From a candidate division WS1 bacterium (GTDB lineage: Bacteria > Armatimonadota > Zipacnadia > Zipacnadales > Zipacnadaceae): 45,218 nt of DNA. Made by a program: the position numbers and the translations under genes. Below, one piece after another: positions 10,553-13,245 of this stretch (positions within the stretch are counted from its first letter, which is position 1; every line of letters starts with the position of its first letter). Below the pieces are notes generated by a model. That model was not told the origin of the DNA. It ran no database searches and worked only from the letters and a program-made list of their open reading frames with translations. The stretch lies in the NCBI GenBank assembly GCA_012523355.1, contig JAAYIR010000045.1:1-45218 (forward strand), given 5' to 3'.

Positions 10553-11626
10553 ATGTCGAGTTCACGATACCCCTGGCCAGGCGTGATAGAGTATTACAGC
10601 GACTTCCTGCCGGTGTCCGATGCGACTCCGCGCGTGACGCTGCTGGAGGGCAATACGCCACTGATCCCGTCGGTCAGTATCGGCCCTTCCCTACCGGGGA
10701 AGCTGGAGCTGTGGTTCAAGTACGAGGGCGTGAACCCCACGGGTTCCTTCAAGGACCGGGGCATGACCATGGCTATCTCCAAGGCCGCTGAGGCGGGCGC
10801 GAAAGCCACCATGTGCGCCTCGACCGGGAATACTTCGGCGGCGGCAGCGGCCTACAGCACCCGCGCGGGGATGCTGTCCATCGTGCTTATCCCGGCAGGC
10901 TACGTGGCACTGGGGAAGCTAGCCCAGGCCCTGTCCTATGGAGCGCGAACGATTCAGGTAGACGGGAACTTCGACGACTGCCTGCGGCTGGTGCGCGAGA
11001 TTACCGACAAGTATCCGGTGGTGCTGGTCAACTCGCTGAATCCCTACCGGATGGATGGACAGAAGACCGCAGCCTTCGAGGTCTGCGACGCGCTGGGGGA
11101 GGCGCCCGCCTATCACGCGTTGCCGGTGGGGAACGCCGGTAACATCACCGCCTACTGGTGGGGCTACAAGGACTACCAGGAGCGAGGAATCACCGAGCGC
11201 ACGCCGCGCATGCTGGGCTTTCAGGCGGCGGGCGCAGCGCCGCTAGTGAGCGGGGAGCCGGTGTCGAAGCCGGAGACCGTGGCCACCGCCATTCGCATCG
11301 GCAATCCCGCGCGTTGGCAGGACGCCATGAAGGCGGTCAAGGAGTCGGACGGGATCCTCCGCGCGGTCACGGACGAAGAGATTCTCGCGGTCTACCAGGA
11401 GCTCGCGGCGAAGGAAGGCATATTCTGCGAGCCGGCCAGCGCGGCCTCGGTGGCAGGAGTTATGAAGGTGGCCGCCGAAGGGTTCTTTGGTGAGGAATCG
11501 GCGACGGTCGTCTGCACGCTAACCGGCCACGGGCTCAAGGACCCCGACCGGGCGGTGTCTCTGGCCCAGGAACCCGAAGAGGCTCCGGCAGAGACAAAGG
11601 CGATTGTGGAGATGTTGGGGTTCTGA
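10553..11626 (+). CDS. thrC: Threonine synthase
   Basis: EGNTPL, NPTGSFKDRG (PLP lysine), ASTGNTS, PVGNAGN, TGHGLKDP. Confidence 0.97.
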   Translation: MSSSRYPWPGVIEYYSDFLPVSDATPRVTLLEGNTPLIPSVSIGPSLPGKLELWFKYEGVNPTGSFKDRGMTMAISKAAEAGAKATMCASTGNTSAAAAAYSTRAGMLSIVLIPAGYVALGKLAQALSYGARTIQVDGNFDDCLRLVREITDKYPVVLVNSLNPYRMDGQKTAAFEVCDALGEAPAYHALPVGNAGNITAYWWGYKDYQERGITERTPRMLGFQAAGAAPLVSGEPVSKPETVATAIRIGNPARWQDAMKAVKESDGILRAVTDEEILAVYQELAAKEGIFCEPASAASVAGVMKVAAEGFFGEESATVVCTLTGHGLKDPDRAVSLAQEPEEAPAETKAIVEMLGF

Positions 11627-11627
11627 A

Positions 11628-11716
11628 GACTCACCCCGCCCTGCTGCGCAGGGCGACGCTCCCTTTGAAAAGGAGGGTGCGCCGCAGACGGCGTGCAGAA
11701 GACGACTCGGACCCCA
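11628..11716. repeat. REP-like triple-hairpin repeat, copy A
   Basis: Near-identical direct repeat of 12100-12187. Confidence 0.9.
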
Positions 11717-11718
11717 GG

Positions 11719-12318
11719 ATGAGTCAGCCAACCGGCAAGGTGGTCATCGTCTCGATTGACCGCGAACGTTATCTGGCTCTGCGGGAACGCGCCCGAGAAA
11801 TGAGGCGGGAGCCCACGCTGGCTGAAGCCGCGCTCTGGAAGCGTCTGCGGAACGGCCGACTGGGTAGATGGCACTTTGAGCGTCAGTTTGTGGTTGGGGA
11901 GTTTATCGTTGATTTCTACTGCCATGCGGCGCGGCTAGTGGTGGAGGTGGATGGCCCGGTTCACGACCATCAGACCGAACGTGACGAGGACCGGGATGCT
12001 ACTCTCGTATCGCAAGGGTTGCGGGTTCTGCGCTTTCCGAATGAGCGGGTGCTGAGGGACATCTGCGCGATCTTGAGCGAGATTCGGCGGGCCGCAGAGG
12101 ACTCTCCCCGCCCTGCTGTGCAGGGCGACCCTCCCTTGAAAGGGAGGGTGCGCTGCAGACAGCGCGCAGAGAACGACTCGGAGCCAGAGCAGGTTTTGCT
12201 GGAGGAATCCGCAGCGCGCGTACTCGCGCGCTACCCTCCCTTCCAAGGGAGGGTCGGCAGCGTCCGCGCTGCCGGGGTGAGTCCCCGGCGGAGACGAAGG
12301 CGATTGTGGAGTTGCTAG
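11719..12318 (+). CDS. DUF559 / Vsr-like endonuclease domain protein
   Basis: PTLAEAALWKRLR, FERQ, FIVDFYC, LVVEVDGPVH, RDEDRD, GLRVLRFPN; the C-terminal ~70 aa are translated repeat sequence. Confidence 0.92.
   Translation: MSQPTGKVVIVSIDRERYLALRERAREMRREPTLAEAALWKRLRNGRLGRWHFERQFVVGEFIVDFYCHAARLVVEVDGPVHDHQTERDEDRDATLVSQGLRVLRFPNERVLRDICAILSEIRRAAEDSPRPAVQGDPPLKGRVRCRQRAENDSEPEQVLLEESAARVLARYPPFQGRVGSVRAAGVSPRRRRRRLWSC
12100..12187. repeat. REP-like triple-hairpin repeat, copy B (direct)
   Basis: GACTCTCCCCGCCCTGCTGTGCAGGGCGACCCTCCCTTGAAAGGGAGGGTGCGCTGCAGACAGCG...GACTCGGA. Confidence 0.9.
12233..12283. repeat. REP-like double-hairpin repeat, copy C (inverted)
   Basis: Reverse complement reads GACTCACCCCGGCAGCGCGGACGCTGCCGACCCTCCCTTGGAAGGGAGGGT. 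Confidence 0.9.
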
Positions 12319-12371
12319 GCCTGGCGCAGATGCCCTTAGGAACGGGTGAAACAGATGGACGATTCTCCTGA
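12285..12371 (+). pseudogene. Displaced duplicate of the thrC 3' end
   Basis: Translates PAETKAIVELLGLAQ...FS* versus thrC PAETKAIVEMLGF*; 30/36 nt identical. Confidence 0.75.
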
Positions 12372-13245
12372 AAAGGCAATTCTGTACACTGACCTGCCGG
12401 GGGCTTTGAGTCGGCGGTTTGGGAAGGTGCGCGATATCTATGACTACGGCGATTGTCTGCTCATCGTCGCCACCGACCGCATCTCCGCCTTCGACTGCGT
12501 CATGCCCAACGGCATCCCCGGCAAGGGGAAGATCCTCACCGCGCTCTCCAAGTTCTGGTTCGACAAGACACAGCATATCATCCCCAACCACATCATCTCC
12601 ATGGACCCCGCGGACTTTCCGGAGCCCGCCCAGGAATCAGCGGACTTGCTGGAAGGGCGCACGATGATGGTCCAGAAGGCCGAGGTGGTGCCGGTGGAGT
12701 GTGTGGTGCGCGGATACCTGGCCGGGTCAGGGTGGAAGTCGTATCAGGAGACCGGCGAGGTCTGCGGACATAAGCTCCCGCCGGGCCTGCAACTCTCCGA
12801 CCGCCTGCCTGAGCCGCTCTTCACCCCCTCCACCAAGGCCGAATCGGGACACGATGAGAATATCTCCTACGCGCAGGCCGCGGAGATTGTGGGACAGGAG
12901 ATAGCCGATCAGCTCCAGGAGAAGTCGTTGGCGCTGTATAACTTCGCCAACGGGTACCTCACCACGCGGCGGCTGATGATTGCGGATACCAAGTATGAAT
13001 TTGGCCTGCTGGACGGCAAGCTGATCGTGATCGATGAGATGATGACGCCGGACTCCTCCCGCTACTGGGACACGGACAAGTATCAGTCTGGTCGCGCGCA
13101 GGAGGCCATGGACAAGCAGTACGTGCGCGATTACCTGGAGACGCTGGACTGGAACAAAGAGCCCCCGGCGCCGGAGCTGCCGCCGGAGGTGGTGGCGGAG
13201 ACAAGGCGGATCTATGAAGAGGCCCTGCGCCGCGTCACCGGTTGA
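12355..13245 (+). CDS. purC: SAICAR synthetase
   Basis: GKVRDIY, ATDRISAFD, PVECVVRGYLAGSGW, IADTKYEFG, TPDSSRYW, DKQYVRDYL; alternative GTG start at 12346. Confidence 0.97.
   Translation: MDDSPEKAILYTDLPGALSRRFGKVRDIYDYGDCLLIVATDRISAFDCVMPNGIPGKGKILTALSKFWFDKTQHIIPNHIISMDPADFPEPAQESADLLEGRTMMVQKAEVVPVECVVRGYLAGSGWKSYQETGEVCGHKLPPGLQLSDRLPEPLFTPSTKAESGHDENISYAQAAEIVGQEIADQLQEKSLALYNFANGYLTTRRLMIADTKYEFGLLDGKLIVIDEMMTPDSSRYWDTDKYQSGRAQEAMDKQYVRDYLETLDWNKEPPAPELPPEVVAETRRIYEEALRRVTG

Follow-up and report, generated by a model that had tools for sequence, protein, structure and literature searches.

The window analysed here is the whole of a 45,218-nt contig (C173) from a candidate division WS1 genome of 3.24 Mb (G000; 345 contigs, 64% G+C). 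Between thrC and purC lies a cassette of about 700 bases that carries a DUF559 gene. One hairpin-bearing repeat unit, A, stands to the left of the gene, and an inverted doublet of two further units, B and C, stands to its right, with the boxes outermost. A 41-nt duplicate of the thrC 3' end, 83% identical, brackets the entire insert. The differences between the two copies are mostly synonymous in the thrC frame. Coordinates are collected in Table 1, where the purC start is an ATG chosen from relatives; the ORF list gives GTG 12346.

Table 1. Features of the thrC-purC region, in window coordinates
Feature	Position	Strand	Details
thrC 3' end, last codons; left copy of the 41-nt duplication	11579..11619	+	Pfam PALP; stop TGA 11624-11626
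Unit A	11625..11714	+	box 11628-11637; hairpin 1 11637-11655; hairpin 2 ~11657-11679; hairpin 3 11680-11693; tail to 11714
DUF559 ORF, 199 aa	11719..12318	+	Vsr-like PD-(D/E)XK nuclease; Pfam domain 11779-12093
Unit B, direct copy of A	12097..12185	+	box 12100-12109; hairpin 1 12109-12127; hairpin 2 12126-12149; hairpin 3 12150-12165
Unit C, inverted	12195..12286	-	box 12274-12283; hairpin 1 12255-12274; hairpin 2 12233-12256; hairpin 3 12213-12232
Right copy of the thrC 3' end, non-coding	12279..12319	+	its distance to purC is the ancestral one, by comparison with the empty G005 site
purC, SAICAR synthetase	12358..13245	+	right-hand neighbour of the cassette

An earlier note on this DNA had described three copies of one structured repeat with a common layout, and that description stands. 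Each unit has a box, GACTCWCCCC, followed by hairpin 1, the dinucleotide GA, hairpin 2 (CCCTCCC-loop-GGGAGGG) and hairpin 3. A and B are direct repeats that agree at 85-90% over about 90 nt. C is inverted, as had been claimed, and the hairpin-2 arms of B and C are 96% complementary. The stems had also been read correctly: hairpin 1 is GCCCTGC/GCAGGGC in A and B and GGCAGCG/CGCTGCC in C, and hairpin 3 is CGCCG-caga-CGGCG in A and CGCTG-caga-CAGCG in B. Hairpin 3 of unit C is GCGCGCG-agta-CGCGCGC. Hairpin 2 of unit A is imperfect (CGCTCCC..., with a bulge). Single-strand folding gave z-scores of -2.9 for A, -5.6 for B and -6.8 for C against 200 dinucleotide shuffles, and the covariance model R1 matched the three units with E-values of 1.7e-11, 3.1e-15 and 5.4e-18, respectively. 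The nuclease ORF does run through B and C, with no stop from ATG 11719 until 12316-12318, and its tail from 12097 on is translated repeat. This read-through is incidental. It is not conserved as protein, since in an orthologous cassette, on metagenome contig L093, the ORF tail passes through hairpin 2 in a different frame and ends sooner.

Covariation was measured in an alignment of nine units: the three in the window, one on contig C233 of the same genome, four on L093 and one in G001. In this alignment 95.9% of cells pair, a level reached by 0 of 500 shuffles, in which 87.7% pair. Control structures slid by 1-3 columns pair in at most 56.6% of cells. Five of the eight pairs of hairpin 1 change on both sides (1/500 shuffles). 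Hairpin 2 is nearly invariant, with 7 of its 9 pairs never changing. The box and hairpin 2 are kept in sequence; hairpin 1 varies but stays paired. The earlier note had read such changes as selection on ssDNA or RNA structure. The part of that claim that holds is the pairing of hairpin 1 despite its change of sequence; selection is a less secure step, as templated repair may also preserve perfect palindromes.

The protein encoded between the units matches Pfam DUF559 (PF04480) over residues 21-125 with 118.8 bits (curated cut-off 20.6; E 1.3e-34). Its nearest solved structure is PDB 3HRL (E 3.8e-18). Across 30 homologues D65, E76 and D78 are invariant and H82 is nearly so, and all four are present here; the alignment has this protein as its first row, so the invariant columns include it by definition. 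A structure model (pLDDT 89) matches 3HRL best, followed by the homing endonuclease I-Bth0305I (3R3P, TM 0.73-0.76). Vsr (1VSR) is a distant fold match of the model, at rank 15 with E 0.078. A structure has been solved for the large DUF559 family, whose members are small nucleases that have, to our knowledge, no known role. Four DUF559 proteins are encoded in G000. They are 34-58% identical, and local DNA scores of their units were uninformative on whether nuclease and unit type diverge together.

Two known groups of nucleases offer a comparison. The nuclease fold is shared with the EDxHD homing endonuclease I-Bth0305I, and EDxHD homing endonucleases are, in the passages cited here, selfish genes that invade conserved genes (Taylor 2011, PMC3239194; Dassa 2009, PMC2677866), a habit comparable to that of an in-frame leuS copy of DUF559 described below. 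I-Bth0305I is presented in the same passages as a multidomain enzyme, whose gene is housed by a group I intron or lies between the halves of a split intein (PMC3239194; PMC2677866). In contrast, the window protein has a single domain of about 126 aa, and its gene is intergenic, lies in neither intron nor intein and is bracketed by hairpin repeats. The Vsr repair endonuclease differs in another way, as the DUF559 gene here is multi-copy and found in inserted contexts. Unlike in the Vsr pairing, no Dcm-type cytosine methyltransferase gene is adjacent, because the neighbours are thrC and purC.

The units resemble a repeat that has already been published. BoxC/PIT/TM repeats have been known since the 1990s, occur in hundreds of genomes and are linked to local rearrangement; as presented in the main text of Holder 2015 (PMC4666352), no origin, enzyme or function is known for them. 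That text reports no transposase or integrase near the motifs, and the terms DUF559 and endonuclease occur 0 times in it. The E. coli form, TMECO, has the consensus CCCTCNCCC N3-6 GGGNGAGGG N3 GGGNGAGGG (Holder 2015, PMC4666352, main text). The window units resemble this repeat, as described there, in their C-rich block and their pyrimidine/purine hairpin, and they have a putative counterpart of its mirror block; the family is abundant, intergenic and spread over many phyla. They differ from it in that A, B and C carry a 17-20-nt G+C hairpin in place of the N3 linker, plus a third hairpin. By eye, the strict TM consensus does not describe A, B and C: their arms are CCCTCCC(TT)/(AA)GGGAGGG, and the third block, GGGGTGAGTC, lies beyond a hairpin of about 20 nt. 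Judged by eye, with no control, G.G-C or T.A-T triplets could form at 7 of the 8 core positions of unit C. A long-linker version of the motif detector picks up units B and C. Judged by their sequences, A, B and C appear to be a variant of the published BoxC/PIT/TM repeat and not a new kind.

The exact A/B/C subfamily is small. Only 4 units occur in G000, 3 of them at this cassette, and a solo inverted doublet is present on C233. A sequence-only profile of A, B and C (nhmmer) was also tried; elsewhere it found just C233:908-963 and, weakly, C247:389-443, and it misses the superfamily. The architecture itself is common in G000: a box, a G+C hairpin, 1-3 bases and then a hairpin of the CCCTCCC or CCCCTCTCC type. 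There are 61 perfect copies of box, hairpin 1 and hairpin 2, in several subfamilies. Copies were also selected blind to the linker, by a box, 14-30 nt and a pyrimidine/purine hairpin. Among the 92 copies found in this way, which have 73 distinct linkers, 65 (71%) hold a perfect stem of at least 6 bp in the linker, compared with 112 of 1840 shuffled linkers (6.1%). The motif detector gave 227 and 268 matches in G000, without a shuffle control, and its long-linker class surely includes chance matches. The window also bears, at 1866-1923, a solo unit of a related subfamily, F2, which reads GACCCCTCCC, GGCGGCG/CGCCGCC and then a CCTCCCCTC hairpin.

The family extends through the genus. A scan with R1, which models the core, gave at least 23 matches in G000 and at least 10, 13 and 54 in the same-genus genomes G001, G002 and G003. 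There were 0 matches in G004-G007, G009 and G010 among the first 150 candidates per genome. As the first 150 candidates were scored in each genome, all R1 counts are lower bounds. Within family f1, genus g1 has DUF559 genes and units, and G004 and G007 have neither; the DUF559 search within this family left out G005, G006, G009 and G010.

Several features of the locus call to mind REP and REPIN elements. These are short structured repeats, often in inverted doublets. Many of their copies are gene-less, and the repeats flank one or a few nuclease genes. Bertels and Rainey reportedly linked REP/REPIN elements with RAYT in 2011. The window family shares the inverted doublets (B with C, the solo doublet on C233, and A'C' and B'C'' on L093) and the many gene-less copies. 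It differs from REP/RAYT in the flanked gene, which encodes a PD-(D/E)XK Vsr-like DUF559 nuclease and not a Y1 HUH transposase, in the triplex-type box of its units and in a looser coupling at the level of genomes. The units could still be ordinary REPs moved by the genome's own RAYT (Y1/HUH) transposase, with DUF559 as a bystander, and the earlier note had itself named RAYT/IS200 as the alternative to be checked. G000 has 5 Y1_Tnp genes, and one of these, on C151, is followed about 20-70 nt past its stop by units of the F1 subfamily, which we count against a link between the units and DUF559. The other 4 have other, unrelated flanking repeats. Among these flanks are tandem 26-nt repeats on C47, direct repeats of about 110 nt on both sides on C227 and three REP-like hairpins on C265. 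Across the phylum, the strict motif lies within 300 nt of 0 of 30 Y1_Tnp loci (30 genomes). Searches at E <= 1e-8 found no Y1_Tnp gene in the unit-rich genomes G002, G031 and G062 or in any of the 8 genomes of genus g31. Y1 genes are therefore not the local partner of these units (0/30 loci in the phylum, 1/5 in G000), and we regard the RAYT explanation as highly improbable.

The cassette is an insertion relative to its kin, as judged from conserved thrC-purC synteny and a short spacer in more distant relatives. The two genes are adjacent in 30 of the 30 relatives searched, and the spacer is 49-58 nt in G004, G005, G010 and G014 (by coordinates, with the sequence read for G005). Of the 80 metagenome loci found, L093 alone was used for comparison. 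It is related at about genus level and has a cassette at the identical site, in the order thrC, A' C', DUF559, B' C'' and purC. Between L093 and the window, protein identity is 83% for thrC, 81% for purC and 66% for DUF559; the nuclease gene is more diverged than its neighbours. Hairpin 1 of the A/B-type units also differs, reading GGCGCC/GGCGCC on L093. Unit C (window 12229-12284), by comparison, is 96-98% identical to L093 954-1009 and 1543-1594, with thrC/purC DNA at about 80%. The 41-nt thrC duplication is absent from the L093 cassette. Long flanking duplications are not general in G000 either: 1 of 88 unit arrays scored at least 14, compared with 0 of 437 mismatched-flank controls.

Near-identical copies of the cassette were found on contigs from public runs X1, X2, X5 and X19, which come from four studies, and one X2 contig shows 4 differences over the full 1201 bases. 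No contig in these runs skips the cassette; contigs drop rare variants, so this has no bearing on excision. Near-identity across four studies, together with the lack of a skipping contig, makes this copy look old and stable, which we count, as we do the greater divergence of its DUF559 gene, against an active pairing of nuclease and repeats. Contigs of four public runs also hold a further C-like unit in another context.

DUF559 genes and repeat units lie side by side far beyond this locus. The earlier note had proposed a test for enrichment of the repeats next to DUF559 genes, and they are very strongly enriched there. In G000 a box-plus-hairpin unit starts within 60 nt after the domain in 4 of 4 DUF559 genes, and 3 of the 4 also have an upstream unit. 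For a wider survey we took 80 DUF559 loci from many phyla and a strict detector, which demands a perfect hairpin with a 7-nt pyrimidine arm and a mirror block. Within 200 nt, it finds the motif downstream of the gene at 47 of 77 loci and upstream at 43 of 75 (3 and 5 loci, respectively, were dropped for flanks that were too short), compared with 7 of 427 control windows. The canonical triplex motif is the form that flanks most of the DUF559 genes examined. At many loci no more than about 15 nt separate the unit from the end of the DUF559 domain, and units stand on both sides. The flanking units are often inverted with outermost boxes, or are direct copies of a doublet. This adjacency is tight and specific, and it is seen in many phyla.

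The pairing reaches cultured bacteria. In E. coli K-12 the DUF559 gene ycjD ends in a degenerate hairpin, which is followed by a canonical TMECO. The strict detector misses this TMECO through one stem mismatch, and the counts above are conservative for that reason. At the same locus (L091; NC_000913.3, 1351050-1351420) a diverged duplicate of the ycjD 3' end, about 44 nt long, lies downstream of the gene around the degenerate hairpin, with TMECO beyond it. In Gillisia mitskevichiae DSM 19839, also cultured, a hairpin-DUF559-hairpin cassette, whose hairpins encode linkers, lies in frame within leuS and leaves one open frame of 816 aa (L073, 256-2703). Judged by eye from untranslated DNA, leuS at L019, L059 and L088 and metH-like genes at L036 and L072 look to have similar cassettes. 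No published link between DUF559 and hairpin or triplex repeats was found in the literature searched. The recurrence of the pairing across many phyla suggests that nuclease and repeats work together.

Hairpins that stand directly after a coding region, with stable stems that covary, might instead act in cis on RNA. They would then serve the DUF559 transcript or its neighbours as 3'-UTR stabilisers, terminators or insulators, and would be conserved for that role. Several observations speak against this. Units occur in both orientations directly after DUF559 genes, and also upstream of them, and there are hundreds of gene-less copies. A scan of 11300-12600 gave no sigma-70-like promoter and no T-tract terminator. 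Rfam at gathering cut-offs returned two tRNAs only, with nothing credible at E <= 10 in 11500-12400. PIT motifs have neither promoter nor terminator activity, according to earlier work cited in the main text of Holder 2015 (PMC4666352). We consider a cis-acting RNA or expression role very unlikely.

The coupling is looser when whole genomes are compared. Among 121 genomes of the phylum, at least 10 motifs are present in 29 of 53 with a strong DUF559 match, compared with 20 of the 68 that lack such a match (odds ratio 2.9, p 0.006, uncorrected for phylogeny). Counted by genus, the figures are 23/39 and 13/44, again uncorrected for phylogeny. At least 10 motifs are also held by 13 of the 50 phylum genomes that have no DUF559 match at all, with 221 in G127, and 18 of the 53 genomes with a strong match hold fewer than 5. 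In genus g31 all 8 genomes have motifs and only 2 have a strong DUF559 match. Copies of DUF559 lost at MAG assembly breaks may explain part of this loose linkage. Most of the 121 genomes are MAGs, which readily lose genes flanked by repeats, and in G000 itself 3 of the 4 copies are on contigs of 1.8-17 kb. The coupling of DUF559 and motifs at genome level is moderate only.

These figures lend themselves to a different explanation, in which the units spread or persist by slippage, by template switching at hairpins or through an unknown enzyme, and DUF559 genes insert into recombination hot spots that are rich in units, or are kept there, without acting on the units. The many unit-rich genomes without DUF559 (the 13 of 50 above) fit such hitch-hiking. 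So does the thrC-purC spacer, which in this genus is a hot spot for insertions: in G001 the site shows two C-like units at the contig start, in G002 (L002, G002:C40, 1000-2400) two unrelated ORFs together with a duplicated purC 5' end, and in G003 (L003, G003:C17) a DNA-methyltransferase-like ORF. TM sites are tied to local rearrangement in the main text of Holder 2015 (PMC4666352), which points the same way. Against it, other small mobile nuclease genes of the same genomes lie outside units, as at the 30 Y1_Tnp loci. The close fit of units to the domain end at many loci, with units on both sides, also argues against mere hitch-hiking, as does a flanking subfamily that is almost private to the cassette. 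We think it unlikely that DUF559 merely lands among the units, and give this reading a minority share of our confidence.

A functional pairing of the DUF559 nuclease with its flanking repeats is the best-supported of these readings. The small size of the exact subfamily, with 4 units in the genome, is a point that we count against it. The earlier note had proposed a system analogous to REP, in which a Vsr-like nuclease serves the repeats. What stands of that proposal is a structured family strongly enriched beside DUF559 genes; the ground for joining the two is adjacency and not activity. On that ground we give roughly even odds to a candidate selfish nuclease-repeat system that would follow a REP/RAYT-like logic with a different enzyme.

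From the arrangement of genes and units we infer recognition, cleavage and mobility by repair. The DUF559 nuclease would recognise the two conserved elements, the box and hairpin 2, once they are folded or extruded as a hairpin, a cruciform or a triplex. It would then nick or cut at the folded unit. Repair by copying from another unit would allow gene-less units to multiply. Where the cassette itself served as the repair donor, the nuclease gene would be carried into a new unit-bearing site. The logic would be that of REP/REPIN and RAYT, and the chemistry would be nearer to that of a homing endonuclease.

A broader reading is possible, and we advance it tentatively, as somewhat more doubtful than the candidate system itself. 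DUF559 nucleases, E. coli YcjD included, may be the missing partner enzymes of BoxC/PIT/TM repeats. Together they would form a cross-phylum selfish system that recognises folded DNA, multiplies gene-less units and can insert whole cassettes in frame into essential genes that remain intact. If the specific link is true, it would give a function to both the BoxC/PIT/TM repeats and DUF559, and it would add a second enzyme class to repeat systems of the REP/RAYT type. As ycjD adjoins TMECO, the question of how DUF559 and the repeats are related is directly testable in E. coli K-12.
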